A stretch of 64,000 nucleotides of DNA, from positions 26,865 through 90,864 of the forward strand of contig CAVPPB010000002.1 in the NCBI GenBank assembly GCA_963707215.1, given 5' to 3'. Positions 4,833 through 49,919 of the stretch are shown in pieces. Numbering within the stretch: position 1 is the first letter of the stretch; the number at the start of each line of letters is the position of its first letter. Source of the stretch: an uncultured Chloroflexia bacterium (GTDB lineage: Bacteria > Chloroflexota > Limnocylindria > Limnocylindrales > CSP1-4). The notes beneath the pieces are model-generated. The model did no database searches, was not told where the DNA came from, and saw only the letters and a list, made by a program, of their open reading frames with translations. The translations under genes and the position numbers were made by a program.

Positions 4833-5501
4833 GTGGAGGATGGAGCAGAACGATTCGAGGACCTCACCCTCGACGCGTTCATCTCGCGATTGGCGACTGC
4901 GGCGCCCGTACCCGGCGGGGGCAGCGCGGCGGCCGTGGCCGCCTCGATAGCCGCTGGTCTTGTGGCCATGGTCGCCGCCCTGACCGAGGGTCGCGAGCGC
5001 TATGCCGGTCACGCGGCCCTTGCGGCCCACTGGATCGGTGCTGGGCGCGAGCTGGCCCACCGCTGCCTCCGGCTCGCGGATGACGATGCGGTCGCCTACG
5101 GCCGATTCGCAGCAGCGATGAAGATGCCGCGCGAATCGGACGCCGAGCGCGAGGAACGGGCCGAGGCGCTTCGTGCCGCCGCCCGGATCGCCGCCGAGGT
5201 GCCGCTCCGCTGCGTCGAGACGTGCGTCGAGATCGTCCGGGGCTCCGAGGCCCTGGCGGGCCGGAGCAACGTCAACGCCGCCTCCGACCTGGTCGTCGCG
5301 GCACTCCTTGCCGAGGCCGCTGCCCGAGGGGCCGCCGTGAACGTCCTGGTCAACCTGCCGGCGCTGGGCGACGACCAGCTGGCCGGTGAGTTCTCGGCCC
5401 GGGTCGACGATCGTCTCGCCGAAGTCGAGCGGCTCGCCGTCGCGACGCGGGAGACGGTCCGCCGCGGTGATACCCGCGCCCCGGTGTCCGAGCCCGCATG
5501 A
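4833..5501 (+). CDS. cyclodeaminase/cyclohydrolase family protein (formiminotetrahydrofolate cyclodeaminase / methenyl-THF cyclohydrolase, FTCD C-domain-like)
   Basis: The N-terminal PVPGGGSAAAVAASIAAGLVAMVAALTEG and the all-alpha, Ala-rich composition are typical of this family. It sits immediately upstream of folD. Confidence 0.8.
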   Translation: MEDGAERFEDLTLDAFISRLATAAPVPGGGSAAAVAASIAAGLVAMVAALTEGRERYAGHAALAAHWIGAGRELAHRCLRLADDDAVAYGRFAAAMKMPRESDAEREERAEALRAAARIAAEVPLRCVETCVEIVRGSEALAGRSNVNAASDLVVAALLAEAAARGAAVNVLVNLPALGDDQLAGEFSARVDDRLAEVERLAVATRETVRRGDTRAPVSEPA

Positions 5502-6448
5502 CGGCATCCGGGGACTCGGCGGTCCAGAACGGAGCGGCCCGGCTCCTCCTGGGTGCGCCCATCGCGGCCGACATCCGGGCCGGCGTCGAGGCGGACGTGG
5601 CCGGCTTCCGGGAACGCCACGGGCGGGCACCAGGCCTGGCGGTCGTCCTCGTCGGGCGTGACGCGCCGTCGACCGTCTACCTCGAGCAGATCCTCCGCGG
5701 CTGCGCCAAGGTCGGGATCGAGGGCCGTTTCGTCGAGGTGGAGCTCGGCGGCGAGGGCGTCGAGGCCAGCGTTGTCCGGGCGATCCGGGAGCTCGGGGAC
5801 GATCCCGACGTCCACGGCATCATCGTCCAGATGCCGCTGCCGCCCGAGGTCCGCCTCCGGTCGGTGATCGAGGCCATCGATCCCGCCAAGGACATCGATG
5901 GGATCCATCCCCTGAATGCCGGACTCCTGCGGCTGGGCTACGACGGCTTCCTTCCGGCCACGGCCCACGCGGCCATCGAGGTCCTCCGCCGCTCGGACAT
6001 CCCGATGGCCGGCCGCGATGCCGTCGTCATCGGTCGCTCGCCGGTCGTCGGCCAGCCGGCTGCCTTCCTGCTCGTCCGCGAGGACGCAACCGTCACCGTC
6101 TGCCACTCGAGGACGCGCGACCTTGCGGCCCACGTCGGTCGGGCCGACATCGTCGTCGTTGCGGCCGGCCGGCCCGGCCTGGTCACCGGCGCGATGCTCA
6201 AGCCGGGTGCGGTCGTGGTCGACGTCGGCATCAACGTGGTCGAGGGGAAGCTCGTCGGCGACGTCGACTTCGACTCCGCGGTCGAAGTCGCCTCGGCCAT
6301 CACCCCGGTCCCGGGCGGCGTCGGGCCGCTGACCAATGCGCTCCTCCTGTCCCATCTCGTCCGGGCCGCCCTCGCGCAGGTCGAGGGGCGCGGCCCGGCC
6401 ATCGTCGAATCGGCCGCCCACAGCCCGGCCATGCGAGGTACCCGATGA
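5498..6448 (+). CDS. folD: bifunctional methylenetetrahydrofolate dehydrogenase / methenyltetrahydrofolate cyclohydrolase
   Basis: IIVQMPLPPEV...IDPAKDIDGIHPLNAGLL...GRSPVVGQPAAFLL match FolD motifs. There is a 4-nt overlap with the upstream gene. Confidence 0.92.
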   Translation: MTASGDSAVQNGAARLLLGAPIAADIRAGVEADVAGFRERHGRAPGLAVVLVGRDAPSTVYLEQILRGCAKVGIEGRFVEVELGGEGVEASVVRAIRELGDDPDVHGIIVQMPLPPEVRLRSVIEAIDPAKDIDGIHPLNAGLLRLGYDGFLPATAHAAIEVLRRSDIPMAGRDAVVIGRSPVVGQPAAFLLVREDATVTVCHSRTRDLAAHVGRADIVVVAAGRPGLVTGAMLKPGAVVVDVGINVVEGKLVGDVDFDSAVEVASAITPVPGGVGPLTNALLLSHLVRAALAQVEGRGPAIVESAAHSPAMRGTR

Positions 6449-8151
6449 CCTTCCCGTCCGATCTCGAGATCGCCCGTTCCGTGCCCCCCCGCCCCATCGT
6501 CGACGTGGCCGCCGAGCTCGGCCTCCGCGACGACGAGATCGAGCTGTACGGCCCGACCAAGGCCAAGGTGACCCTGGCCGGCGTCGAGCGTGTCGAGGTC
6601 GAGCGACCTCGCGGGCGGTACGTCGTCGTCACGGCGATCACCCCGACCCCGCTCGGCGAGGGCAAGACGACCACGACGGTCGGGCTCGCCCAGGGCCTGA
6701 ACCGGATCGGCCGCAAGGCCTCGGTGGCCATCCGCCAGCCGTCGCTGGGTCCGGTCTTCGGGATCAAGGGCGGGGCGGCCGGCGGCGGCTACTCCCAGAT
6801 CATCCCGATGGAGGACTTCAACCTCCACCTGACGGGCGACATCCACGCCATCGGGGCGGCCCACAATCTGGCCTCGGCCTTCCTCGACAACCACCTGCAC
6901 CACGGCAACCAGCTGGGGATCGATCCCTTCTCGATCCGTTGGCCGCGGGTCGTCGACATCAGCGACCGGGCCATCCGCAGGGTCGTGATCGGACTCGGGG
7001 GCAAGGAGAATGGCGTCCCCCGCGAGTCGGAGTGGGTCATCACGGTCGCCTCCGAGGTCATGGCCATCCTGGCCCTCTCGAAGGACATCTTCGACCTGCG
7101 GGAGCGGCTCGGCCGGATCGTCCTGGCCACCGATCGCGACGGCAAGGCCGTCACCGCCGAGGATCTCAAGGTCGCCGGCGCGATGACCGTCCTCCTCCGC
7201 GACGCCATCAAGCCGAACCTGCTCCAGACCCTCGAGGGCGGTCCGGCCTACGTCCACTGCGGGCCGTTCGCCAACATCGCCCACGGCAACAGCTCGATCA
7301 TCGCCGACCGGGTGGCCCTGCAGACGAGCGACATCGTCGTCACCGAGGCCGGCTTCGGCGCCGACATGGGGGCGGAGAAGTTCTTCGACATCAAGTGCCG
7401 GGCCTCGGGGCTCCGTCCCGACGCAGCCGTCGTCGTGGCCACGATCCGGGCCCTCAAGATGCACGGCGGGGTCGGCCGGATCGTCGCCGGCAAGCCGCTG
7501 GACCCGGCCCTGACGACCGAGAACGTCGAGGCGGTCCGGACCGGCGGCGCCAACCTCGCCGCCCAGGTCGAGCTCGTCCGCTCCTACGGCGTCCCCGTGG
7601 TCGTGGCCATCAACGCCTTCCCGACCGACACGGAGGCCGAGTTCGAGGCGGTCCGCCAGGTCGCTCTCGAGGCTGGCGCGGTGGACGCCGTGGTGACCAC
7701 CAACTGGGCCGACGGCGGGGCCGGAGCCGAGGCGCTCGCCGCATCGGTATGGGAGGCGGCGTCCAGCGACGCCGGCGATTTCCGGCTCCTCTACCCGGAC
7801 GAGCTGCCCCTCCGCGAGAAGATCGAGACGATCGCGGCGAAGGTCTACGGGGCCGACGGGGTGGACTTCGCGCCAGCAGCGACCAAGGCCCTCGCCGAGT
7901 ACGAGCGCCTGGGCTACGGGCACCTGCCGGTCTGCGTGGCCAAGACCCACCTCTCGCTGAGCCACGACCCCAACCTCAAGGGCCGACCGAGCGGCTTCCG
8001 CTTCCCGATCCGCGACGTCAAGCTCGCCGCCGGTGCAGGCTTCATCTACCCGCTCGCGGGCGACATGCGGACGATGCCGGGGCTCCCGTCGAGGCCGGCC
8101 GGCGAGAACATCGACATCGACGCCGACGGCAACGTCGTCGGCCTCTTCTAG
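6445..8151 (+). CDS. fhs: formate--tetrahydrofolate ligase
   Basis: TPTPLGEGKTTTTVGLAQGL (P-loop) and a 568-aa length, with full-length similarity to Fhs. It overlaps the folD stop. Confidence 0.95.
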   Translation: MTFPSDLEIARSVPPRPIVDVAAELGLRDDEIELYGPTKAKVTLAGVERVEVERPRGRYVVVTAITPTPLGEGKTTTTVGLAQGLNRIGRKASVAIRQPSLGPVFGIKGGAAGGGYSQIIPMEDFNLHLTGDIHAIGAAHNLASAFLDNHLHHGNQLGIDPFSIRWPRVVDISDRAIRRVVIGLGGKENGVPRESEWVITVASEVMAILALSKDIFDLRERLGRIVLATDRDGKAVTAEDLKVAGAMTVLLRDAIKPNLLQTLEGGPAYVHCGPFANIAHGNSSIIADRVALQTSDIVVTEAGFGADMGAEKFFDIKCRASGLRPDAAVVVATIRALKMHGGVGRIVAGKPLDPALTTENVEAVRTGGANLAAQVELVRSYGVPVVVAINAFPTDTEAEFEAVRQVALEAGAVDAVVTTNWADGGAGAEALAASVWEAASSDAGDFRLLYPDELPLREKIETIAAKVYGADGVDFAPAATKALAEYERLGYGHLPVCVAKTHLSLSHDPNLKGRPSGFRFPIRDVKLAAGAGFIYPLAGDMRTMPGLPSRPAGENIDIDADGNVVGLF

Positions 8152-9826: not shown

Positions 9827-9909
9827 TGTCGCACGGCCGGCGGCGGCGGCGTCCCCCGGTGCCCGGCCCGCGGCGACTCCCCGGGCCGCGGCGGCCCCCC
9901 GGTCGAGCG

Positions 9910-10652
9910 TCAGCCCTTTGGCGTGGGACCGGCGTCGGCGACCGAGCTCGCCTCGGCGCTCGAGCCGGTCTCGGCGCTCGGCCGGCCGACCTTCGCTCGG
10001 ACCCGGGCCCAGCCCGGATGCCCCAGCTGCCACCAGATGAAGGCGAGCACCCCGAGGGCAAGGATGCCCAGGACGAGGTACTCGAAGCGGCTCAGCCAGG
10101 CGCCGATGACCCCCCAGTTGTCGCCGAGGAGGTAGCCGGCGCCGACGAGCAGGGCCGTCCACGGCAACGAGCCGAGGAAGGTGAAGACCACGAACGGCAG
10201 CAGCGGCATCCGGGCGATACCGGCGGCGAACGAGATGAGCGAGCGGACGACCGGCACCATCCGGCCGAAGAAGGCGGCCACGGAGCCGTAGCGGTCGAAC
10301 CAGGCCTCCGTCTTGGCCAGGTCCTCCGGGTCGATGAGCAGGTAGCGGCCCCAGCGCACGAGGAGCGGTCGTCCGCCGTAGAAGCCGATCGCGTAGGCGA
10401 CGAGGGCGCCGAGCGTGGCCCCGACCGTCCCGGCGAGGATCGTCAGCCAGATGGTTCCAGGGCGAGCCGGTCAGTGGCTCGATGTTCTCGGGGAAGGCGG
10501 TCAGGAAGCCGGCGAACGGCAGGACCAGCTCCGAGGGGATCGGGATGATGACGCTCTCGATCGGCCACCCAGAGGGCCACCCCGAGGTAGCCGACGGCGT
10601 TGTAGACAGAGGTCACGAGCTCGCGGACGGGCCCGTCGAGGAAGTCGAACAC
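9910..10652 (-). pseudogene. DedA/SNARE-associated family membrane protein, interrupted by a frameshift (possibly an assembly indel)
   Basis: The N-terminal MFDFLDGPVRELVTSVYNAVGYLGVALW is in one frame (10443-10652). The C-terminal DedA core (RMVPVVRSLISFAAGIARMPLLPFVVFTFLGSLPW) is in another (9910-10359). Confidence 0.6.
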
Positions 10653-10763
10653 GGGCGGAGTCTACCGGCCTTCCCCGCGCCGTATGCTGGACCCGATGTC
10701 CGAGTCGTCGAGCCAGGGGTCCCATCCGTCCGGGCCGCATCACGAACCGCGCCGATCCCGGCG

Positions 10764-12414
10764 ATGGGCCATCGTGCGTCCGCCACCCGGCTGGCGACGG
10801 CGTCCTCGGCCGTCGTCCTGACCGGCGCCGACCTCTGGGTCGCCGACGTCGAGGCCGTCGCCCGGCACGGCGTCCCGGTCGCCCTCGACATCCACGCCCG
10901 GGCCCGGATGCAGGAGGCCCGCGACGTCATCGTCCGCCTCGTCGAGACCGGCGAGGTGGTCTACGGCGTGACGACCGGGTTCGGGTCGCTCGCCGATCGG
11001 ACGATCGAGGCGTCCGATGCCGCCCTGCTCCAGGAGCACCTCCTGGTCAGTCACGCCGCCGGCGTCGGGCGGCCGTTCCCCCGCGAGGTCGTCCGGGCGA
11101 TGCTCGTCCTGCGGGCCAACACCCTGGCCCTGGGGCACTCCGGCTGCCGCCCCGAACTCGTCGACCGCATCTGCCGGTTCCTGGAGCTGGGGCTCCACCC
11201 GGTCGTCCCCGAGCAGGGCAGCGTCGGGGCGTCGGGCGACCTCGCACCGCTCGCCCACCTGGCCCTGCCGATGATCGGTCGTGGCGAGGTCGAGCTCGGG
11301 CGGCCACGTCATGCCGGCGCTGCTCGCCCTCAGGGAGGTCGGCCTCGAGCCGCTGGCCCTGGAGCCCAAGGAGGGGCTGGCGCTGCTGAACGGGACCCAG
11401 CTCATGGGCGCCCTGGCGGCCCTCCTGGCCGCCGACGCGGAGCGCCTGGTCCGGACCGCCAGCGTGGCCGCGGCCATGAGCGTGGAGGCGCTGCTCGGAA
11501 CCGAGGTCGCCTACGCCGCGCCGTACCAGCTGGCTCGACCCCATCCCGGCCAGGTCGAGACGGCGGGCGAGCTGCGCTGGCTGCTCCGGGGCTCGGGGCT
11601 CCAGGCGAGCCACCACGGCCGTGCCCACAAGGTCCAGGACCCGTACTCGCTGCGCTGCGTTCCCCAGGTCCACGGGGCCGTCCGGGATGCCCTCGGTCAC
11701 CTGGACCGGGTCCTGGAGATCGAGCTCAACAGTGCGACCGACAACCCACTGGTCTTCCCGGGGGGCGGCGCGGCGCCAGACGGAACCATCGCCACCGGCG
11801 GCGGTCGTGTCATCAGCGGCGGCAACTTCCACGGCGAGCCGATCGCCCTCGCCATCGACTTCGCCAAGCTGGCCCTGGCCGAGCTCGGATCGATCTCGGA
11901 GCGGCGCACCGCGCTGCTTCTCGACCCCAGCCTCAATGGCGGCCTTCCCCCGTTCCTGGCAGGCCGCTCGGGGCTCGATTCCGGGCTGATGCTCGTCCAG
12001 TACACCGCGGCCGCGCTCGCCTCGGAGGACAAGGTCCTGGCGCACCCGTCGTCGGCCGACTCGATCCCCACGAGCGCGAACCAGGAGGACCACGTCTCCA
12101 TGGGGGCGACGGCCGGCCGGCACGCGAGGACCGTCCTCGAGAACGTCCAGCGGATCGTCGCGATCGAGCTCCTTTGCGCCGCCCAGGCGCTCGACCTGCG
12201 GATCGAGGCGCTCGCCGACGAGGCGTCGGGCTCGCCTGGCCCTGCCCCGGGGGAGGGGGTCGCCGAGGCACATCGCCGCATCCGGGCCGTCGTCCCACGG
12301 CTGGCCGGCGACCGCGAGCCTGGGCCGGACATGGCGGCCCTGACCGAGCTGGTCGTCGGTGGCTCGCTCGCCGACCTCGCGGGGCCCGGGCGGGAGACGA
12401 TCGCGGGCGGCTGA
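10764..12414 (+). pseudogene. hutH: histidine ammonia-lyase, split by a frameshift near 11290
   Basis: The N-terminal half (GFGSLAD...ASGDLAPLAHLALPMIGRGEVEL) and the C-terminal half (LNGTQLMGALAAL...SANQEDHVSMG) are each full-quality HutH matches, but in different frames. Confidence 0.85.
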
Positions 12415-12463
12415 CGCGGGCGGCTGACGCGGGCGATCGATCCTTCGCGACCGCCGGTCGGTC

Positions 12464-12976
12464 TCAGCCGAAGCCGAACCGGCGGCGCGGCTGGCGGCCC
12501 ATCGACGACGAGGGCTTCGTCGTGCGGAAGCCGGTCCGTCGAAGCGTCTGGTCGATCTCCTCGACGAAGGGCCGCCCCTCAGGGCGGAGCTCGAGCCAGT
12601 CGAGATAGCCGGGGTCCACGCGGGCGATCTCGCCGATCGACCAGCCCTTGTGGCGCCCGAAGGTCAGGACGCTGCCGCTCGGTCGGCCGGGCGGTGGGCC
12701 GGCGGCACCGACCCAGGACGGCTCGCGGCCGGCCGGCCGGCTGGAGCGCGGGTCGGCGGCCTCGGCGGCACGGGCCCGGTCCCAGGCAGCTCGTCGGCCA
12801 GGATCGCCAAGGACCTCCCAGGCGGCGTTGATCTCGCTCATCCGGTAGTGGCCGGCGGTGCCGGCGCGGTCCGGGTGGAAGCGACGGGCAAGGGCGCGAT
12901 AGGCCGACCGGATCGCCTCCTGGTCGGCATCCGGGGCAACCCTAAGCACGTCGTACGGGTCGCGCGCCTCGATCAT
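12464..12976 (-). CDS. J-domain (DnaJ-like) protein
   Basis: [32 protein letters not shown] is a canonical J-domain with the HPD motif. Intact 170 aa. Confidence 0.75.
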
Positions 12977-13085
12977 CCTCGTCCCCTGGTCGCGGTCGCC
13001 CGGTCAGGCTTGGGCCCAAGGGTAGTGGCGGCGTCAACGGGCTCGGCCATGACATCCGTACTGGTCGGACCCGTACACTCGGGGC

Positions 13086-13850
13086 ATGCCCGCCGTCCGC
13101 ATCGTCGACGTCATCGACGAGGCCTCGTTCGACCTGGTCCCGCCCTGTGCCGACGCCGGCTTCGACCACCGGACCTGTGACCACTGGGAGGACGCCGACC
13201 GGGGCTCCAAGGCCGCCCGCGCTGCCTGGCTCGAGCCGAGCGCGACACCGCCCGTCGCGCCCGCGACCCGGCCGTCCAACCCGTTCCTGGCCGACCTCGA
13301 GGATGCTGCGCCGAACCCGTTCGCCCCGGCGGGCGCGGCGCCCTCGAACCCCTTCGCTCCCTCGGGCGATGCCCTCGACGACAACCCGTTCGCGCCGCGA
13401 CGGCCGACGGGGCCGAAGCTGGATCGCGACGCCCCGCGCAAGCTTCGGCTGCTCACCCGGGGGCTCGCGGTCTTCGGCAGCTACGCCAAGGTCCTGCTCC
13501 TCGACGACGAGCCCGTCGCCTATGCCCAGTTCGGGCCGCTGTCGGCGTACCCGCGGGCCCTGCACCTACGCGAGCTGTACCCGCAGCTGCCCGAGGCACC
13601 CCTGCCGGCGGTCATCACCTGCATCGCGACCACCGCCGGGACCCGGGGGGAGGGCCACGGCACACGACTCGTCGAGGCCGTTTGCGGCGATCTCGAGGGG
13701 CGCGGCTTCAGCGCCGTCGAGGCCTACCCGGAGGTCGGCGCTCTGGCCGATGCCACGAGTGCAGCCACGGTGGCCTTCTGGCTGGCCTGTGGGTTCGCCG
13801 TCGCCGTCGACGACCAGCGATTCCCGGTGGTCCGCCGCGAGCTCGGCTGA
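13086..13850 (+). CDS. GNAT family N-acetyltransferase with an internal NPF-repeat insertion
   Basis: The C-terminal GNAT motif A ([29 protein letters not shown]) follows four NPF motifs ([32 protein letters not shown]) in a low-complexity insert. Confidence 0.6.
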
Positions 13851-13950
13851 GCCGATCGCCCTGGCGTACCAAGCCGACCGCCCGAGGCTCTCGAGGGGTG
13901 ACGGGCGCGATGCCGCGGAGCACACTGGAGCCCCGAGCCGGAGGACGACG

Positions 13951-15661
<1,711 letters not shown>

Positions 15662-15869
15662 TCCGGGCGACCCGATCGCCCCGCCGTGGTGCGTCGGCGC
15701 ACCGCTCCTGCGGTCCCGGTCGCCCGGCGCCTCGATCCGCGGTCCGAACCGTGGTCACGAGGCTTCACCGGCGCTTATCCCGGCGTTACTCTGGCGTAGG
15801 CCGAGCGGGCCGAGCCTGATCCCGGGCGGGCTGCCGGACGATTCGGTGGCCGCCGCGCCCGCTGCGCCG

Positions 15870-19239
<3,370 letters not shown>

Positions 19240-19296
19240 CAGACCGGCTGACGACCGCGATCAAGGCCGCTGGGCATCAGCCCAGCGGCCTTCCGT

Positions 19297-20718
19297 CTAG
19301 GGCTCGGGCTCGTCGGTCTCGACGAGCACCGGCTCTGCCGGGCCGAGCGGGGTCGCGATGGGCTCGGGCGGCTCGAGCTCGCGGGGCCCGTGCCCCGGCG
19401 GCGCCGCTCCACCCGGTCCGCTCGGCTCGCCGACGTCCTCGGGCCCGCGCGGCATCTCGCGGATCGTCCGGACGGGTGTGAGCACCAGCGGCAGGATGGC
19501 GAAGCTGGCGCCGATCCCGCCGAGGAGGATGACCGGTCGCAGGCCGACCCCGGCGTCGGTCAGGCCCTGGGCGATGAGGCCGCCGACGATCTGCCCGATC
19601 GGGATCGTGCCCCACACGATGAAGCGCATCGTCGCGTTCATCCGGCCCTGGAGCCGTTCCGGGGTGATCGCCTGGCGGAAGCTCACCTGGTTGACGTTGT
19701 AGACGACCGACGAGAAGCCGGTGAGCATGCCCGAGGCGACCAGGAACGGGAACGCCACGTCCGCCGGCGCGAGGGCGACGAGGAAGAGGGCCGGTGCGCT
19801 GACGGCCATGGAGACCACGATCGCGGGACCGACGCCGAGGCGACGCGAGAACCGGCCGGCCGTCAGGGCCCCGACGATGGCCCCGATGTTGCCGAGGCCG
19901 AAGGCTACGCCGATGGCGCCGGCTCCCAAGCCGAGCTCGCGGACCAGGAAGACCAGGAGCGTCGCGAACCCGATGCTGGTGAAGAGGTTGGAGATCCCGG
20001 TCGAGGCTGCGATGCCGCGCAGGTAGCGGTTGCCGAGCACGTAGCGCAGGCCGGCCGCCACCTCCGAGCGCATGCTGCCCCGCGGGCGACCGTGCTCGTC
20101 GGTGTGGCGGTCCGGGGTCGGTTCCTCGCGGCGGATCAGCAGGACGAAGATGCCGGACCAGGCGAAGCTGACCGCATCGAGGAGGATGGCCAGCGGCGCC
20201 CGCAGCACCTGGATGATCACGCCGGCGATCGCGGGGCCGGCCGCCTGGGCGACCGTCCGGCTGATCTCGAGCTTCGAGTTGGCCTCCACGAGCTGGTCCC
20301 GGTCGACGAGCGAGGGGACGTAGGCCTGGTACGAGATGTCGAAGAGGACGGTCAGGGTGCCGACCAAGAACCCGACGACGTAGAGCTGCCAGATCGTCAG
20401 CCCACCGAGGGCGAAGGCCACCGGGATCGAGCCCAGGGCGAGGGCCCGGCCGACGTCGCCGGCGATGAGGATCGGGCGTCGGCGGAGGCGGTCGATCCAG
20501 GCCCCGGCCGGCAGGCTGAAGAGGATGAAGGGGAGGAACTCGATCGTGCTCAGGAGCGCCACCTCGAACGGTGACGCCTCGAGGATGTTGATGGCGACCA
20601 GAGGCAGGGCCAGCAGGCTGATCTGCGAGCCGAACTGGCTGATCGTCTCGGCCGACCAGAACTTCAGGAAGTCGGCGTGGCGCCAGAGGCTGCGGGTCGG
20701 GGCCGGGACACCGGACAT
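19297..20718 (-). CDS. MFS transporter
   Basis: Start placed at MSGVPAPTRSLWRHADFLKFWSAETISQFG. Twelve TM helices and an MFS signature (GAWIDRLRRRPILIAGD). The upstream part of the 633-aa track ORF is low-complexity. Confidence 0.8.
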   Translation of the reverse strand: MSGVPAPTRSLWRHADFLKFWSAETISQFGSQISLLALPLVAINILEASPFEVALLSTIEFLPFILFSLPAGAWIDRLRRRPILIAGDVGRALALGSIPVAFALGGLTIWQLYVVGFLVGTLTVLFDISYQAYVPSLVDRDQLVEANSKLEISRTVAQAAGPAIAGVIIQVLRAPLAILLDAVSFAWSGIFVLLIRREEPTPDRHTDEHGRPRGSMRSEVAAGLRYVLGNRYLRGIAASTGISNLFTSIGFATLLVFLVRELGLGAGAIGVAFGLGNIGAIVGALTAGRFSRRLGVGPAIVVSMAVSAPALFLVALAPADVAFPFLVASGMLTGFSSVVYNVNQVSFRQAITPERLQGRMNATMRFIVWGTIPIGQIVGGLIAQGLTDAGVGLRPVILLGGIGASFAILPLVLTPVRTIREMPRGPEDVGEPSGPGGAAPPGHGPRELEPPEPIATPLGPAEPVLVETDEPEP

Positions 20719-20899
20719 GGTCACGGGAGCTCCGCGAGGGCCAGCGGCGGCGGCGTCGGGCGTCGTCGGTGACCCGGCGGAGTCTAGCGCGGGGGAAGTC
20801 CAGCCCGCCGGGGGGCGCTGACAGGAGCGGGAGGCGACGCGCCGTGAACCCGCGCCGGATGCCACCCCCGGGACCCATCGACCTGTCACGATATGGACG

Positions 20900-21880
20900 A
20901 TGGCCGCCGGGCTCGTCGAATTGGTCCCCAACGTTTCCGAGGGTCGTCGCCTCGAGGTGATCGACCTGCTTGCCGCTGCGGTGCGGGCGCTGCCCGGTGC
21001 CCGGCTGCTCGACCGGACCAGCGACGCGTCGCACAACCGAAGCGTCCTGACGATGGCGGGTGAAGCTCCGGCCGTGTGCGATGCGCTCGAGGAGATGGTG
21101 GCTGTCGCCCTCCGCGAGATCGACATGGAACGCCAGGAGGGTGAGCATCCCCGGATCGGCGCGGTCGACGTGATCCCGTTCGTGCCGCTCGGGGACACGA
21201 CGATGGCCGAAGCGGTGGACGTCGCCCGAACCTTCGGTCAGCGCCTGGCCGAGCGGTTCGACCTGCCGGTCTACTTCTACGCCGAGGCGGCGGGCCGGTC
21301 CGACCGGGTCCGCCTCGCCGACGTCCGCCGCGGCCAGTACGAGGGCCTCAAGAGCGAGATCGCGACCCGCGGTCGCGAGCCCGACGCGGGCCCGTCGCGG
21401 ATGCATCCGACCGGCGGAGCGGTCGCGGTCGGGGCCCGTCCCTTCCTCATCGCCTGGAACATCGACCTCGGGACGGACGACGTCGAGGTCGCCAAGCGGA
21501 TCGCCCGGCGGGTCCGCGAGTCCGGCGGTGGCTTGCCCAGGGTCCAGGCGAGCGGCTTCTGGATCGCCGAGCGCGGCCGGGCGCAGGTGTCGATGAACCT
21601 GCTCGACGTCGGGGTCACCCCGATGTGGCTCGTCTGGGACGAGGTCGCCGACCTGGCGGCCACCGAGGGGCGTCGAGCCGGTCGCCTCCGAGCTCATCGG
21701 CCTGGCGCCCCTCCGGGCGTTCCTCGACACGGCCGATCGCGCCGGCGCGGCCACGGACGCTCCGATCGAGGCCCGCTTCGCGGCCGCGGCCAGCTACCTC
21801 AGGCTCATGGACGCCGACCCCGGCATGGCCCTCGAGCTGCGCCTGGCCGCCGCCCCCGACGACGACGCCCCACGCGACCG

Positions 21881-21884
<4 letters not shown>
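20900..21884 (+). pseudogene. ftcD: glutamate formimidoyltransferase (FTCD N-domain-like), with a frameshift near 21665
   Basis: VELVPNVSEGRRLEVIDLLAAAV...HPRIGAVDVIPFVPL...QYEGLKSEIA are formiminotransferase motifs. The C-terminal 70 aa continue in another frame and end in an ATGA overlap with hutI. Confidence 0.75.
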
Positions 21885-23246
<1,362 letters not shown>

Positions 23247-23252
23247 CCCGAC

Positions 23253-23928
23253 CTAGGGCTGTCGGCCGCGCTGCTCCAGGAGGACCGTCGTCGTCTCGGA
23301 CGGGAGGCCGCTGGAGGTGACCGAGAGCCGGGCCTGGGCCTGGGGCTCGGCGCCCATCTCGTGGAGGAACCGGCGGAGCGCCTCGTCGCAGGGAGCGCCC
23401 TCCGGGCAGACGGGCATCGGCACGACGATCCGCGGGTCGAGCTGGGCGACGAGCTCGGCGACCTTGGTCGCCGACATGGCGCCGCCGATCGGGACGCAGA
23501 CGACGTCCACCTCACCGAGCTCCGACAGGCGCTCCTGTGGCAGCAGGTGCCCGATGTCGCCGAGGTGGATGGTGTGGATCCCGTCGAGCTCGATGCTGAA
23601 GGCCGTCTGCCGGCCGCGCTCCTCGCCGCGGCGGTCGTCGCGGAACGTCCGCACCCCGGTGATCAGGACGTGCCTGACCTCGTACTCGCCGGGTCCGTCG
23701 AGGACGAAGGCCTCGTCGAGGCTGGTCGGCAGGTAGGTCCCCCCGTCCCGCGACCGCCGGCCCTTCGGTTTGGGCCAGCGGCTCGTCGTCCGGGTGGCTG
23801 ATGGTGACGACGTCCCCGGTGATGCCTCGGCCCGTCGGCCCGACGATCGCCGGATAGGGGTCGGTGACGACGACGGCGTCCTTGCCGCGGAGGCGGATGC
23901 AGGTCCGCCCGTACCAGGTCAGCTCCAT
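23253..23928 (-). pseudogene. MBL-fold metal-dependent hydrolase (UPF0173-like), with a frameshift near 23.78 kb
   Basis: The N-terminal MELTWYGRTCIRLRGKDAVVVTDPY...VTISHPDDEP and the C-terminal LDGIHTIHLGDIGHLL...VDVVCVPIGG are in different frames. Confidence 0.55.
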
Positions 23929-24194
23929 GGCCGGATTCTGACAGGAGACGAGAAGACCGGAGGCGCCTGCCCATCGGCGCCCCCGGTCGGAGGGAGGGAG
24001 GATGGAACCGTTAGGTTCGTCCGTCACGAACGGTAGGCGACCGTGGGTTCAACCACGAGCGGGCAGATGGTTAAGAAACGCACATTCGGTGTCGCGGATG
24101 GACGGCCGCCCGCCACGCATCGGCCGCGCCCTGCGTCCCGGGATGACCCGCACGGCGGCAGGACGTTCGTCCCGCATGCATCCCGCGGCCACTC

Positions 24195-25563
24195 ATGCGA
24201 GCATCGCCCCGTGATCATCCATCGACGCCCCCGAAACGCCTCCGGCCGCCGGGTACCGGGCTCCGGCCGCTCGACTCCGCCGTGTCGGCGCGCCTCCTCG
24301 CCGTCCTGTTCGCCGGCACCCTCGTGCTGGCCGCCTGCGGCTCCGGAGCCACGCCGGCTCCGGCCACCACGGCCCCCGACTCGCCGTCGCCGAGCGCCGC
24401 CGCTCCGTCGGCGCCGGCTCGACGCGACCGAGATCGAAGGCCGCTGACGGCTGAGATCGCCGAGCCAGGTCGCCGAGATCCGCGAGCTCGAGCTCCAGGA
24501 GCCGATCGAGGTCGAGGTCCTCGATGAGGCCGGGCTCGTGGCCTTCGTCGAGGCGCAGTTCGCCGAGGAGAACCCGGCCGAGTACGTCGCCGCCTACGAC
24601 CGCCTGCTCACCCGCCTGGGCCTCTTCCCGGCCGAGGACGAGCTCGCCGACACCTACATCGAGCTCCTCGGCTCGCAGGTGCTGGGGCTCTACGACGACG
24701 AGACCCGCAAGCTGTACGTCGTCGCTCGCGAGGGCGGCCTCGGCGGCACCGAGAAGGTCACCCTGGCCCACGAGATCGACCACGCCCTCCAGGACCAGCA
24801 CTTCACGCTTCGCACCGTCGTCCCGGAGGGCCGTGACCAGGGCGACCAGGCGCTCGGCGCGCTCTCGCTGATCGAGGGTGACGCCACCCTGGTGATGACC
24901 ATCTGGGCGAGCACGAACCTGACCCCCCAGGAGGCGCTCGAGCTCATCGAGGACGCCCAGGACCCGGAGCAGGCCGCCGTCCTGGCGGAGGCCCCGCCCA
25001 TCTTGCGGGACGGGCTCGTGTTCCCCTACGAAGCGGGCCTGTCGCTGGCCCTGGGTCTTCGCTCCGACGGGGGCTGGGGCGCCGTGGACGCCGCCTACGA
25101 CCGTCCCCCGGCCTCCACCGAGCAGGTGATCCACCCGGAGAAGTACGCGTCGCACGAGCAGCCCGATCGCGGTCGATCTGCCGTCCGACCTGGCGATCGG
25201 ATCGGCGCCGGCTGGTCCGTGCCGCTCAGGACACCTTCGGCGAGTTCTCAGCCGCGGATCTGGCTCCAGACCGCTGGCGACCGCGAGCCCGATGTGATCG
25301 CCGGATACCACGGCCGAGGGCTGGGGCGGTGACGGATCGGCTACCTGACGGGTCCGAACGGGGCCGAGGCGGTCGTGATGCGGACGACCTGGGACGACCC
25401 GGCCGCCGCCGACCGCTTCCAGGACGCCGCCTCGCGTGTCGTCGCCGATGTCCGCCGGACCGGCACCCGTTCCGGGTATCCGATCGCGAGATCCTCGTCA
25501 TCGTGGCCAGCGATGGCGCCGTGCTCGATGCAGCGGTCGCCGCCTTCGAGTCTGCCCCTCTGA
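24195..25563 (+). pseudogene. secreted lipoprotein with a zincin-like HExxH motif, frameshifted (boundaries approximate)
   Basis: A lipobox signal (LLAVLFAGTLVLAACGSG) is followed, after a frame change, by a conserved domain containing TLAHEIDHALQDQHF. The C-terminal segments are scattered over two more frames. Confidence 0.4.
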
Positions 25564-25569
25564 TCGGGG

Positions 25570-27264
25570 CTACATCACTTCGGGTGCCGAGATCCCCAGC
25601 AGGGTCAGCGATCGGGCGATGGTCAGCTGCGGGCGCCCGGAACAGCGCGAGGCGTCGCGACGATCGCTCTGGCTCATCGGGATCGACGACTCGGGCGTCA
25701 CGGTAGTAGGCGTGGAAGGCCGTCGCCAGCTCGGTCGCGTAGGCCGTGATGCCGTGGGTCTCCTCGGCCGCCGCGGCGTCCTCGACGACCTCGGGGAAGC
25801 GCAGCATCTCGCGGATCAGCGCGGCCTCGGGCCCGCCGTCGAGGCCCCCGGCCATCGAGGAAGCCGGCTGGATGCCGACTTCGGCCGGCCTTGCGCACGA
25901 TCGAGGCGATCCGGGCGTGGGCGTACTGGACGTAGTAGACGGGGTTCTCGTTCGACTGCTTCTTGGCCAGCTCGATGTCGAAGTCGATGCCCGATGTCGC
26001 CGCCCGTGAACCGAAGAACCAGCGGGCCGCGTCGACCCCGACCTCGGCCAGCAGCTCGTCGAGGGTGATGAAGGTGCCGGCCCGCTTGCTCATCGAGATC
26101 TCCTCGCCGTCGCGGACGAAACGAACCCAGGCCGTCAGCAGCATCCGGACCGCTGCCTTGTCGTAGCCCATGGCCTGGGCGGCGTTGCGCACCCGAGCGA
26201 CGGTCCCGTGGTGGTCGGCGCCCCAGATGTAGATCAGCTCGTCGAAACCGCGGCTGAACTTCTCGACGACGTAGCCGATGTCGGCAGCGAAGTAGGTCGG
26301 TTCGCCATTCGAGCGCAGGATCACCCGGTCCTTGTCGTCGCCGAACACGGTCGAGCGGAACCAGAGCGCGCCGTCCCGCTCGTATGTGTGGCCGCTCGCG
26401 GTCAACCGTTCGATCGCCCGCTCGACCCAGCCGTCGCGATGCAGCGAGCTCTCGCTCTTCCAGACGTCGAAGTGGACACCCAGGTGCTCGAGGCTCGCTT
26501 CGATGCCGGACCGCACGCTGCTCCGACGCCCAGACGCCGAGGATCCAGGCCGCGTCGCTCGGCTGCGGCGCCTCGTGCGCCGACGGCTCGGGCGGGATGG
26601 CCGGCGCAGGTCTGGACGTAGTCACCGTGGTAGCCGTCCTCGGGCAGCTCGGTGCCCTCGCGGATCGCGAGCACGGACAGGCCGAGGTTGCGCACCTGGG
26701 TGCCGAAGTCGTTGAAGTAGTACTCGCGGGTGACGCGATGGCCGCCGGCCTCGAGGACGCGTCCAGGAGGTCGCCGACGAACGCTCCACGAGCGTTGCCG
26801 ATGTGGAGCGGGCCAGTCGGGTTGGCCGACACGAACTCGACGTTGACGTGGCGCGGCTCGGGTCGCCGCGACCCGCCCCCAGTCATCCGGGCGGCGGAGG
26901 AGCTGATCGACCGTGCCGGCCAGCGCCCCGTCCGAGAGGCGGAGATTGACGAACCCCGGCGGGGCGACCTCGACCGAGGCGACCGGAGAGGTCGGACGCC
27001 CGCGCGGGCCACCAGGGCGTCCGCCAGGGCCTGGGCGATCTCGAGCGGGGCACGCCGGTACGGGCGGGCGAGCTTCAGGGCGAGGTTGGTGGCGAGATCG
27101 CCGTGCTCGGGGCTCGCCGGTCGCTCCACCTCGATGGGTGGCCGCTCGGTGTCAGACCCCGGATCGGGAAGGGCGCCGGCCGCGACTGCATCCCTCCAGG
27201 CGTCCTCGATCCCGACCCGGACGCGGGCACGCAGCGAGAGGATGGGCTGTCCGGCGTCGGGCAC
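25570..27264 (-). pseudogene. argS: arginine--tRNA ligase, interrupted by at least four frameshifts
   Basis: ArgS segments appear in successive frames: [30 protein letters not shown], then [36 protein letters not shown], then [17 protein letters not shown]...[17 protein letters not shown]...[17 protein letters not shown], then LRFPEVVEDAAAAEETHGITAYATELATAFHAYY. Confidence 0.85.
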
Positions 27265-27490
27265 TCGGGTCTCCTGGGGCAGGTTCTTGCTGGTCGATCT
27301 CAGGGTGGTAGCGCCATGGTAGCGAGCGGCCGAAGGATCCCGCGGCGTGGGCGGAACGGTGCGGCTGCGCACCACAAGGTGCGGTCCGGGACGGTGGCCC
27401 ACGCTCGGTGCCCACCTGGAGGGGTCCGCTCGGGTCTGGACGCGTCCGTGACGGCGGGCGAGGATTGGAGGCCCGAGTGGAGGTGGACAC

Positions 27491-28774
<1,284 letters not shown>

Positions 28775-29044
28775 ATCCGTCGCCTGCGAGTCGGCGACCC
28801 CCGATCAGGACGGACGTACCAGGACCGTCGGTGCCCTTGCGCACCGGAATCCCCGCCGAGCAAGGGACAGGGTAGGGGAGGTAGGGGCGGTTCCCTACTG
28901 GTCCGGTGCGGACCTGAGCAGTACCATCCGCGGTCCGCTCGGCCTAGCATCGGTCCTGCGGTACCAGTCCCGGGCATGACCCGGGTCGTGGTCGTCGGTC
29001 TCGGGGGCCGGCCATGTGATCCGTCCCCCCTGAAGGAATCGTCG

Positions 29045-29060
29045 GCGTCGTATGACGCTC
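29045..29060 (+). promoter_or_regulatory. imperfect palindrome GGCGTCGTATGACGCT about 70 bp upstream of the DUF11 gene start; related to the site at 34677-34692
   Basis: It shares the 12-mer TCGTCGGCGTCG and the GACGC half-site with the site upstream of the paralog-B gene. Confidence 0.3.
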
Positions 29061-29122
29061 GCACATCGTGAGGTCGGTCGAAATCGACAGACCCGGTCTC
29101 GGGGACTCGGGAGGGCAGATCG

Positions 29123-32100
29123 AATGTCAGGCGGTCTCTGGCGCTACATGAGCGCGCGGACCCGGCGAAGCGTCGTCTTCGTCTGGAGCGCGCTCTTCGT
29201 GTTCTCGTTGGGGTTGCAGTACCTCAACCTCGCATCGCCGGCGAGCGTGCTCGCCGTGCACGACGAGGGCCTGTTCGAGCTCGATGGCGATGCCACGAAC
29301 AGTGGGTCGCCCGGAGACGACTGGGACCTCGTCTACAACGGCACTTCGAGTGCCGACGACACGTTCTTCGTCAACGATCCGGTCGATGACCAGAACGATG
29401 ATTCGTTCACGGGCGGGTCCACGAAGGACGACCTGCCGATCAGCGGTTGGCTCTGGAAGGAGGCCAAGGCCAGCCAGGCGAAGAACGACATCGTCAACGC
29501 CTTCGCCGCCGCGTACACCCAGGGCGGCAACACCTACGCCTACTTCGGCCTCACCAAGTGGGAGGCCAGCGGCGACAATTTCGTCGGCTTCTGGTTCCTG
29601 AAGAACGCCATCGGCAAGTCCGGAGCGGGTACGCCCCCCGGCTCCCCGTTCAGCGGGAACCACAGCGTCGGTGACGTCCTTGTTCTCGCCAACTACACCA
29701 ACGGCGGTGCCATCGCCGACTTCGAGATCTTCGAGTGGGTCGGCTCCGGCGGTTCCGTGAACGGGACGCTGAACCTCATCGATTTGGGCGTCCCCTGCGA
29801 CCTGCCCGGCGCCGACGAGGCCTGCGGAACGACCAATGCCGACTACGAAACGGCGCCGTGGCCGTTCCAGGGCCGCAACGAGGCCGCAGGGCAGTTCCCG
29901 CCCGGCACGTTCTTCGAGGGTGGCATCAACCTGACCGCCCTGGGCCTCGACGATGCGTGCTTCACCGGCATCGTCGCCGAGACGCGCTCGTCGCAGTCGG
30001 TGGACGCCACCCTGTCCGACTTCGCGCTCGGCAACTTCAACACCTGTCAGCCGCCGACCATCGAGACCCAGGTCATCGACGATCAGGGTGCCTCGCTCGG
30101 CTCGCTCGGCACGATCAACGTCGGCGAGACGGTCTCCGATCGGGTCACCGTCGGCGGCCCGCTGGGGCTGGCCAGTGGCACGGTCGACTTCTTCCTCTGC
30201 GGCCCCGCCCAGAGCGTGCCTGACTGTTCGACCGGAGGCACGGCGGCCGGCTCGAGCGTTCTCGCTGGCGGGCAGGGTGTCTCCAGCCCGTTCACGGCCG
30301 ACTCGCCCTCCGATGTCGGGTTCTACTGCTACCGCGCCGAGTACACGCCGGCGCAGGGCAGCAAGTACCTCGCCGGGTCCCACACCAACCAGACCACCGA
30401 GTGCTTCCAGGTCATCCCGGCCCAGGTCACGATCCTCAAGACCGCCGGGTCAAGCCCGGTGAACGCCGGTGACGACATCAGCTTCACGCTCTCGTGGGGC
30501 AACAGCGGCCCGGGAACCGCGACAGGCGTCGTCGTCACCGACACGCTGCCGACGACCGGCGGCCTGGACTGGACGATCGACGGCTTCACCGGCACCGGCA
30601 GCACCTGCTCGATCGTCGACAACGTCCTGAGCTGCAACGTCGGGACGATCCCCGGCAACACCGCGGAGAGCGGGACGGTCACGGTCTCCTCCGCCACCAG
30701 CCCCGATGCCTGCGGGATCGTCGACAACACCGGCGAGATCACCTCCCTGAACGACGGCACCGCCCAGTCCAGTGCGCAGATCACCGTCAACTGCCCGGAC
30801 GTGACGGTCACCAAGACCGCCGAGACGACGCCGGTCAACGCCGGTGACGAGATCGCCTTCGCCATCGAGGTCGAGAACCTCGGCCCGGGCGTCGCCTACG
30901 GGGTGACCCTCAGCGACACGCTCCCGGGTGGCTTCACCTGGAGCGAGGACAGCGACGACTGCGAGATCGCGGCCGGCGTCCTGTCCTGCGACTTCGGCGA
31001 CCTTGCCGCCGGTGAGACGCGGACGGTCACCGTCAGCGCCTCCACCGACGCCGAGGACTGCGCGACGATCCCGAACACGGCGACCGTCGCCGCCACCAAC
31101 GAGCCGAGCTCGGCTACCGGCAACAACAGCGACAACGACGCCATCGTCGTGAACTGCCCGGACGTCACGGTCACCAAGACCGCCGACGAGGGCCCGTTCA
31201 GCGCCGGTGACGAGATCGGCTTCACGGTCACCATCAGCAACATCGGCGCGGGCACGGCGTACACCGCGTTCGCCGCTGACCCGCTGCCCGGCAGCGGCTG
31301 GAGCATCGAGTCCCAGGACGGCGGCTGGACCCTCGTCGGGGACATGCTCGAATTCGGCCCGCAGGATCTCATCGCGGGCGCCAGCTCGTCGGTCCACGTC
31401 GTTCGCGACACGACCGCCGAGGACTGTGGCCTCGTCGAGAACACCGTCCAGGTCACCGCCGGCAACGAGCCGGTGGCTGCCCAGGGCAACAACAGCGCCA
31501 ACGACTCGCTCACCGTCAACTGCCCGGACGTGACGGTCACCAAGACCGCCGAGACGACGCCGGTCAACGCCGGTGACGAGATCGCCTTCGCCATCGAGGT
31601 CGAGAACCTCGGCCCGGGCGTCGCCTACGGGGTGACCCTCAGCGACACGCTCCCGGGTGGCTTCACCTGGAGCGAGGACAGCGACGACTGCGAGATCGCG
31701 GCCGGCGTCCTGTCCTGCGACTTCGGCGACCTTGCCGCCGGTGAGACGCGGACGGTCACCGTCAGCGCCTCCACCGACGCCGAGGACTGCGCGACGATCC
31801 CGAACACGGCGACCGTCGCCGCCACCAACGAGCCGAGCTCGGCTACCGGCAACAACAGCGACAACGACGCCATCGTCGTGAACTGCCCGGACGTCACGGT
31901 CACCAAGACCGCCGACGAGGGCCCGTTCAGCGCCGGTGACGAGATCGGCTTCACGGTCACCATCAGCAACATCGGCGCGGGCACGGCGTACACCGCGTTC
32001 GCCGCTGACCCGCTGCCCGGCAGCGGCTGGAGCATCGAGTCCCAGGACGGCGGCTGGACCCTCGTCGGGGACATGCTCGAATTCGGCCCGCAGGATCTCA

Positions 32101-49872: not shown

Positions 49873-49919
49873 CCGCGGAGCGTACCGCGGGCGCGCCGGG
49901 CTCGCCCTACACTCGACCG

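Follow-up and report, generated by a model that had tools for sequence, protein, structure and literature searches.

Nine genes between 10.45 and 27.0 kb of a 64-kb stretch of DNA from an uncultured member of the Limnocylindrales (Chloroflexota), referred to here as the window, are interrupted by changes of reading frame, each gene requiring from 1 to 14 corrections and the set about 41 in total. The broken genes are dedA, hutH, hutU, an LTD-domain nuclease, ftcD, hutI, an MBL hydrolase, a DUF8575/HExxH lipoprotein and argS; a pair of GH13 genes at 49.3-50.6 kb is broken as well, and the remainder of the window is clean. We attribute these frame changes, with a probability of roughly 0.92, to errors in the consensus of a metagenome assembled from long reads, most likely from Nanopore reads alone and without short-read polishing, and the organism most likely carries intact hutH, hutU, ftcD, hutI, argS and GH13 genes. 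A first-pass annotation of this DNA had placed a frameshifted cluster at about 9.9-27.3 kb, which holds at essentially those coordinates except that a DnaJ-like, a GNAT-like and an MFS gene inside it are intact. Its view that both GH13 genes are broken and the rest is clean is borne out by a codon-usage path, a stop-codon test and Pfam, while its estimate of one to five shifts per gene was too low (hutU has 14, the lipoprotein about eight and argS seven).

A Viterbi path on codon usage located the frame changes, passing from one frame to another of a single strand at about 10453, 10561, 11296, 14308-15463 and 17512-17854, then at about 21667-23032, 23752, 24463 and 25486-27000, and again at about 49348-49786 and 50533-50599. 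At the junctions within the broken genes the upstream frame continues without a stop codon for 60-3000 nt. All other same-strand junctions of the window run into a stop within 16 nt and are thus ordinary gene boundaries, with one exception at 4191; this apparent frame change was rejected as an ordinary overlap of an intact DinB ORF with the next ORF. When the fragments are stitched together, the resulting proteins match full Pfam models without a break, including positions 3-464 of 466 of PF00221 for HutH, the three urocanase domains, positions 1-176 of 176 for FTCD_N, and the alpha-amylase catalytic domain PF00128 in both GH13 proteins (2-445 and 1-391 of 446). Events were placed to within a few bases by frameshift-aware alignment to intact orthologues, together with a DNA alignment of hutU. 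Searches of relatives by blastx used SEG and composition statistics, as the uncorrected version returned mostly spurious matches to GC-rich ORFs. The direction of frame change along the Viterbi path, a dynamic-programming alignment of protein to DNA and an ordinary MAFFT alignment of the DNA are concordant on the events.

At the left edge of the affected zone, dedA (9910-10652, minus strand; VTT domain) carries one additional base near 10453-10456 and another near 10562-10565; its stitched product has an unbroken Pfam VTT_dom and is 89% identical to the intact orthologue at locus L082 of a relative, with two insertions. The histidine ammonia-lyase gene hutH (10812-12414, plus strand) has a single extra base at about 11295-11299, and its product is 90% identical to the L082 HutH with one insertion, no codon gaps and no stops. 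Two intact genes follow: a DnaJ/ExoX-like_C gene assigned by Pfam (12464-12976, minus strand), whose residues 1-168 match the L082 orthologue without a frameshift, and a GNAT-like gene (13086-13850, plus strand), free of frameshifts against its L083 and L049 orthologues. Among NCBI/ENA records, one contig of 479,490 bp carries an exact copy of the DnaJ/ExoX-like_C protein; for a soil metagenome assembly, such a length would point to long reads. Exact look-ups of the MFS and GNAT-like proteins gave no match, probably as a result of other start codons set by the gene caller.

Downstream of hutU, a gene for a secreted nuclease with LTD and endonuclease/exonuclease/phosphatase domains ('nucH'; 15858-19239, plus strand; Pfam LTD and Exo_endo_phos) has one base too many at each of four sites, about 17511, 17612, 17789 and 17852, and its product is 83% identical to an intact 1126-aa L083 orthologue, with four insertions and no stops. 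The MFS transporter gene beside it (19297-20718, minus strand) is intact against its L083 and L002 orthologues. The genes ftcD and hutI are two separate, adjacent genes. Glutamate formiminotransferase (ftcD, 20900-21884, plus strand) has one extra base at about 21665-21669, its Pfam domains FTCD_N and FTCD both being found and its product aligning at 87% identity to a 327-aa L083 orthologue with one insertion. Imidazolonepropionase (hutI, 21881-23246, plus strand) lacks a base at about 22068 and has one too many at about 22290 and again at about 23032; it is 89% identical to a 454-aa L083 orthologue across these three events, with no stops, and three other references give the same sites. An MBL-fold hydrolase gene (23253-23928, minus strand; Lactamase_B_3 by Pfam) has one extra base at about 23775-23776 and 90% identity to a 224-aa L083 orthologue with one insertion. 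Next to it lies the gene for an HExxH lipoprotein (24207-25547, plus strand), assigned to the DUF8575 family in a relative, with about eight events: one at about 24463, the others forming a dense patch of mixed insertions and deletions between 25156 and 25460. The exact event positions in this gene, obtained by frameshift-aware alignment to L083 (69% identity), L008, L044 and L046, are less certain because these references are more distant.

The arginyl-tRNA synthetase gene argS (25570-27264, minus strand) keeps its GTG start and TAG stop and contains seven events, five of them extra bases (at about 26863, 26603, 26518, 25887 and 25634) and two missing bases (at about 27002 and 26765). The repaired protein matches three intact orthologues of 563 aa over residues 1-563 at 81% identity, free of codon gaps and stops, the HIGN and MSKR motifs are present, and the gene lies at the syntenic argS position of relatives. 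In the second affected region, a GH13 alpha-amylase-family lipoprotein gene (48157-49854, minus strand) is hit at no fewer than three sites, about 49347, about 49425 and about 49556-49583, and a further event may lie at about 49743. These positions come from frameshift-aware alignment to L086 and L087 and are approximate because the two references are only 48-49% identical; a metagenome scan for GH13 relatives returned nothing above 49% identity. In the second GH13 gene (49855-51448, plus strand) the frame changes twice, at about 50532 and at about 50598, each time as a +1 insertion would shift it, as indicated by the Viterbi path, the lack of nearby stops and the unbroken PF00128 match.

The most heavily affected gene is that for urocanase (hutU, 13951-15661, plus strand), with 14 events between 14298 and 15461 and its ATG start and TGA stop kept. 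When its DNA is aligned with that of four independent contigs in which the gene is intact (93% and 87% DNA identity), 12 insertions and two deletions of one nucleotide are private to the window. The repaired protein is 95% identical to P0001/L081 across the 14 events, with no stops and all three urocanase Pfam domains complete. Substitutions specific to the window fall at codon positions 1, 2 and 3 in the numbers 6/6/30, as compared with 8/1/27 for an intact sister sequence; this third-position bias, like that of the sister, indicates that purifying selection has not been relaxed, the relaxation looked for in these substitutions being absent. The columns of private insertions differ between the window and the hutU of locus L046, and seven other contigs have none, which marks the errors as stochastic and not a conserved biological feature. 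Error positions common to the assemblies were considered and rejected, as the sites in the two genes do not coincide.

All 41 events in the 10.45-27.0 kb zone are changes of one nucleotide, with 32 insertions and nine deletions (binomial p = 4e-4). A scan of the repaired genes found no in-frame stop codon and no firmly placed lesion other than single-nucleotide indels, and codon gaps against the closest intact orthologues number zero in hutH, hutU and argS and at most a few in the other repaired genes. Once repaired, HutU, HutH, HutI, FtcD, the MBL hydrolase, the nuclease and ArgS each match an intact orthologue over the whole length, with no stops. The events are clustered (variance/mean of 3.1 in 500-nt bins, p = 2e-9), the densest patches reaching 1.2 events per 100 nt and adjoining clean stretches of 2-3.8 kb. 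The events involve any base and in many cases fall away from homopolymers. Of the 12 insertions in hutU, no more than half lengthen an existing run of one base; the remainder are single A, C, G or T residues standing alone. A concentration in homopolymers, the classic Nanopore profile, was looked for among the events and was absent, and homopolymers as the sole cause are rejected on account of the many isolated insertions. This weakens attribution to a specific platform, not the verdict of an artefact.

As a control, seven orthologous genes were followed in 80 syntenic Limnocylindrales MAG loci retrieved with the MFS gene as anchor, 31 of them from Microflora Danica MAGs and 49 from other MAGs. 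The Microflora Danica MAGs are Nanopore-only, having been assembled with Flye (--meta --nano-hq) and one round of Medaka, with no short-read polishing (PMC12313526). Their loci have 30 of 185 gene copies frameshifted by 69 events, 60 of which are +1 insertions, with clusters of 12-14 events within a single gene and argS affected in seven MAGs. Among the other loci, whose short-read status was inferred solely from contig names (k141_, NODE_, scaffold_), 1 of 206 copies is frameshifted, by one doubtful event (Fisher p = 1.6e-9). Among these orthologues, lesions occur in the clade's Nanopore-only MAGs and essentially never in MAGs with contig names in the short-read style.

The window itself probably derives from an unpolished long-read assembly of this kind. 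Stray single bases, mostly spurious insertions, would persist where read support is too thin or too mixed; the patches probably stem from coverage that is locally low or from reads that map ambiguously. Nanopore bins below about 40-fold coverage have been reported to need short-read polishing, their indels fragmenting gene calls (PMC9262707). In uncorrected Nanopore assemblies and MAGs, as examined by IDEEL-type tests and corrected by proovframe or Kastor (PMC9262707, PMC12007338, PMC12313526), single-base indels split conserved genes as they do here. As in other uncorrected long-read assemblies, the positions of the errors are random and peculiar to the individual assembly, and the errors strike essential genes as readily as accessory ones. 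The likeness is one of analogy, and it has limits: the long-read literature stresses homopolymer indels, whereas events in the window are mostly insertions, often outside homopolymers, and they occur in patches, unlike evenly spread errors.

Either low coverage or a mixed-strain consensus may be the technical cause of these patches. In the latter case, reads from co-occurring related Limnocylindrales would pile up on conserved genes, giving a chimeric polish with spurious indels, an account that we regard as possible but rather doubtful. Event segments are slightly more conserved than the zone as a whole (mean best identity 0.871 versus 0.836, permutation p = 0.005), more relatives align at them (p = 0.03), and the most conserved gene, hutU, has the most events both in the window and in L046. 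However, this enrichment is modest and driven by one gene, and the dense patch at 25.15-25.46 kb sits in the poorly conserved lipoprotein gene. Mixing of strains should moreover yield chiefly substitutions, and the substitutions in hutU look normal.

Two coherent pathways, hut and GH13, are represented among the broken genes, which would be in keeping with a loss of histidine and maltodextrin utilisation by recent pseudogenisation, with a second argS elsewhere supplying the function. In clusters of pseudogenes formed by reductive evolution, such as those of Mycobacterium leprae and of recently host-restricted pathogens, neighbouring genes are frameshifted as they are in the window. True pseudogenes also show nonsense codons, larger deletions and relaxed substitutions, and essential single-copy genes are spared; the window shows none of the first three, and its argS, normally essential and single-copy, is hit seven times. 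When the spectrum of nonsense mutations, multi-base deletions and deletion bias was sought in the repaired genes, none of the three was found, no firmly placed indel is longer than one nucleotide, hutH, hutU and argS have no codon gaps, and the indels are biased toward insertion by 32 to 9. Bacterial mutation is generally deletion-biased. In hutU, 14 indels stand against only about 42 lineage-specific substitutions that still favour third positions. The unrelated dedA, nuclease, MBL hydrolase and lipoprotein genes and the syntenic, essential argS are also hit. Other Nanopore-only MAGs show this very pattern, and the clade's remaining MAGs, short-read by their contig names, do not. We therefore consider pseudogenisation highly improbable. 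The first-pass annotation had raised such a decay of histidine and maltodextrin utilisation as an alternative, which finds no support here, given the lack of nonsense mutations, the maintained selection and the Nanopore-only pattern. It had itself favoured an artefact of assembly or consensus, a preference that the single-nucleotide, insertion-biased indels, the signature of purifying selection and the MAG control uphold. Two further points in it stand: that the lesions are indels and not divergence, as full-length alignment with no in-frame stops confirms, and that a true argS pseudogene is unlikely, the gene having no stops, its GTG and TAG in place and 81% end-to-end identity with its orthologues.

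Little credence attaches to the idea of genuine indels of very recent origin, a local insertion-biased process such as an error-prone repair patch having just disrupted hut, GH13 and argS; function would then come from other copies or from co-resident intact genomes. Programmed recoding, in which ribosomal frameshifting or transcriptional slippage would restore the frames in vivo, has nothing in its favour beyond the full length of the repaired proteins and can be dismissed, with up to 14 shifts per gene in both directions, unrelated contexts with no common slippery motif or homopolymer tract, and event positions conserved in no relative.

No independent assembly of the same species, at 99% identity or more, was found across an event site, the closest being at 93% DNA identity. 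Full-length HutU gave a best match of 95% amino acid and 93% DNA identity, and a search with a 123-aa HutU segment returned fragments only, all at 81% identity or less. The repaired MBL, DedA and FtcD proteins have no verbatim match in a collection of 15 billion proteins, in which a positive control was found, and none of the Logan contigs with the identical DnaJ-like protein crosses an event site.

The practical value of consensus errors of this sort is as a warning on data quality. In public Nanopore-only MAGs of this clade, roughly a sixth of the copies of seven conserved genes are split by spurious indels, mostly +1, and the fragments of split genes are already present in public protein collections. 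Inferences of pathway loss or pseudogenes from such MAGs need frameshift-aware checks. The biological weight of the frame changes themselves is low, and its histidine-utilisation, maltodextrin and argS genes should be taken as intact in this organism.

A frame plot of GC3 and a Viterbi path based on codon usage reveal numerous same-strand frame switches in only two zones of the window, at 10.45-27.0 kb and 49.35-50.6 kb. At the junctions of these events the upstream frame stays open for 60-3000 nt without a stop, while all remaining same-strand junctions reach a stop within 16 nt and are ordinary gene boundaries. The sole exception, at 4191, was rejected as a frame change, being a place where the intact DinB ORF and the next one overlap. 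When the frames are stitched together, Pfam models are matched in one stretch by HutH (3-464/466), by FtcD (FTCD_N, 1-176/176) and by the catalytic domains of the two GH13 proteins (2-445/446 and 1-391/446), and HutU matches all three urocanase domains completely. Given these open upstream frames and complete models, the breaks are real in the sequence, and the shift sites listed in the first-pass annotation proved accurate.

Events were counted with a frameshift-aware protein-versus-DNA aligner written for this analysis, using as references first orthologues from 80 related loci and then closer intact orthologues found in the protein database and on the contigs of those proteins (L081, with a HutU 95% identical in amino acids, L082, L083, and the ArgS proteins P0241-P0244, at 80-82%). 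This alignment gave two insertions in dedA, four in the LTD nuclease gene and one each in hutH, ftcD and the MBL hydrolase gene; two insertions and one deletion in hutI; five insertions and two deletions in argS; about eight events, insertions and deletions mixed, in the HExxH lipoprotein gene; and 12 insertions and two deletions in hutU. The same 14 hutU events, present in the window only, were recovered in a MAFFT DNA alignment with four independent intact contigs (93%, 87% identity). Every event is 1 nt in size, and the sum for 10.45-27.0 kb is 41, comprising 32 insertions and nine deletions (p = 4e-4 against equality). Their clustering is strong (variance/mean ratio 3.1, p = 2e-9); the density peaks in hutU at 1.2 per 100 nt, with adjoining event-free stretches of 2-3.8 kb. 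Any of the four bases can be inserted, in many cases without lengthening a homopolymer; once the extra base is taken out, the local peptide often equals that of the orthologue exactly, as in peptides of 17 and 15 letters.

Both GH13 genes are broken, as had been claimed, with at least three events in the minus-strand gene (~49347, ~49425 and ~49556-49583, placed against relatives of 48-49% identity) and two frame changes in the plus-strand gene (~50532 and ~50598, from the Viterbi path, stop-free junctions and Pfam); the search turned up no close reference, so all of them are located only approximately. The earlier view that nearly every gene at 9.9-27.3 kb is interrupted holds for most of them, but three (the DnaJ-like, GNAT-like and MFS genes) are uninterrupted, the range is 1 to 14 shifts per gene in place of one to five, and ftcD and hutI, both indeed broken, are separate genes.

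The G+C content of the window is 70-75%. Probing species-representative genomes with the intact MFS gene (19297-20718, minus strand) retrieved 80 syntenic loci, all from uncultured Chloroflexota of the 'Candidatus Limnocylindrales/Limnocylindria' group, with an MFS identity of only 65-68% to the best relative. Most carry the gene order of the window, each gene being a single intact ORF: hutH, DnaJ-like, GNAT-like, hutU, LTD nuclease, MFS, ftcD, hutI, MBL hydrolase, DUF8575/HExxH lipoprotein and argS. This hutH-to-argS order (10.8-27.3 kb), which places a secreted nuclease and an MFS transporter among the hut genes, is common to many Limnocylindrales species (L001-L080, L083). HutU searches, exact look-ups of repaired proteins and Logan contigs yielded no independent same-species assembly spanning an event site.

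Several neighboring genes deserve mention. The hut genes (10812-23246) are adjoined by a one-carbon module (4833-8148) containing an FTHFS gene (6445-8148) 95% identical to the PF01268-bearing gene of contig L082, a FolD-like ORF (5498-6448), and an ORF at 4833-5501 that by eye resembles formiminotetrahydrofolate cyclodeaminase. With ftcD supplying the formiminotransferase as a separate gene, this arrangement would make up a split FTCD pathway that turns histidine into glutamate and C1 units. Adjoining argS is a 427-aa ORF (27491-28774, plus strand) of very high GC3 (0.9-1.0) and with no Pfam match, which is continuous, yet its codon-usage path switches strand mid-ORF. The 5.2-kb gene at 29034-34319 (plus strand), named 'DUF11' by the first-pass annotation alone, forms a single unbroken 1762-codon ORF; two adjoining antisense shadow ORFs of 242 codons each (30899-31624 and 31628-32353) suggest a ~729-nt tandem repeat within it.

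Genuine gene decay, already doubted from the sequence, finds no support in the repaired genes, none of which contains an in-frame stop. The argS gene retains its GTG start and TAG stop, and repaired ArgS aligns over residues 1-563 with intact 563-aa orthologues with no codon-level gaps, keeping the HIGN and MSKR motifs. The hutU gene retains its ATG and TGA; polarised against two outgroups, its window-specific substitutions number 6, 6 and 30 at codon positions 1, 2 and 3, resembling the 8/1/27 of an intact sister, so selection is not relaxed despite 14 frameshifts. Real bacterial pseudogenes have a mixed, deletion-biased spectrum; the window shows the reverse, nothing but 1-nt indels of which insertions make up three-quarters.

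As a control, seven reference proteins (HutH, HutU, FtcD, HutI, MBL, MFS and ArgS) were aligned to the 80 loci with the identical aligner. Among 31 loci from Microflora Danica MAGs ('MFD...', contig_N names), 30/185 gene copies are frameshifted, with 69 events of which 60 are +1 insertions, versus 1/206 copies and one doubtful event in 49 loci from other MAGs (k141_, NODE_, scaffold_ names; Fisher p = 1.6e-9). The doubtful event is one 'del2' call, in the MFS gene at locus L047, and probably arose from misalignment of a divergent segment. Among the Microflora Danica MAGs, 12-14 events cluster in single genes (argS of L001, hutU of L046), and argS is broken in seven MAGs. The window and L046 share no hutU insertion column, which marks the errors as stochastic and private. 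For the Microflora Danica long-read MAGs, Nanopore reads were the only input: Flye --meta --nano-hq was followed by a single Medaka round and no short-read polishing, and the authors acknowledge Nanopore-associated errors in the MAGs of lower coverage (PMC12313526). According to another paper by this group, Nanopore bins below ~40-fold coverage require short-read polishing because indels fragment gene calls (PMC9262707). The lesions are thus technical in character and, within this clade, specific to Nanopore-only assemblies, the comparison group being typed by contig names.

The window shows the same signature at about three times the average event density of Microflora Danica-type assemblies, and its contig would likewise come from a Nanopore-only-type assembly, the event patches being presumably stretches whose consensus had few or ambiguously mapped reads. 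An identical copy of one window protein is listed on a single NCBI/ENA contig of 479,490 bp; for an uncultured soil bacterium, such a length would indicate long reads. Modern Nanopore data that are raw or hardly corrected have error rates in a range that includes ~1%, the patch density here. Events fall slightly more often in segments that relatives conserve better (best identity 0.871 versus a zone average of 0.836, permutation p = 0.005), an enrichment driven mainly by hutU that could point to cross-mapping of reads from co-occurring relatives during polishing. A dense event patch in the poorly conserved lipoprotein gene speaks against cross-mapping as the only cause. The frame breaks are almost certainly an assembly artefact and not a biological feature; assembly error had been the favored reading from the outset, and the insertion-biased 1-nt spectrum and the control bear it out.

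The proteins retrieved with a 123-aa HutU segment as query were mostly urocanase fragments of 110-216 aa (P0121-P0240), several on contigs of 0.1-1.3 Mb, which suggests that public collections already hold frameshift-split hutU from other long assemblies as separate 'proteins'. The sole value of the frame-break cluster is as a warning for the annotation of long-read MAGs.
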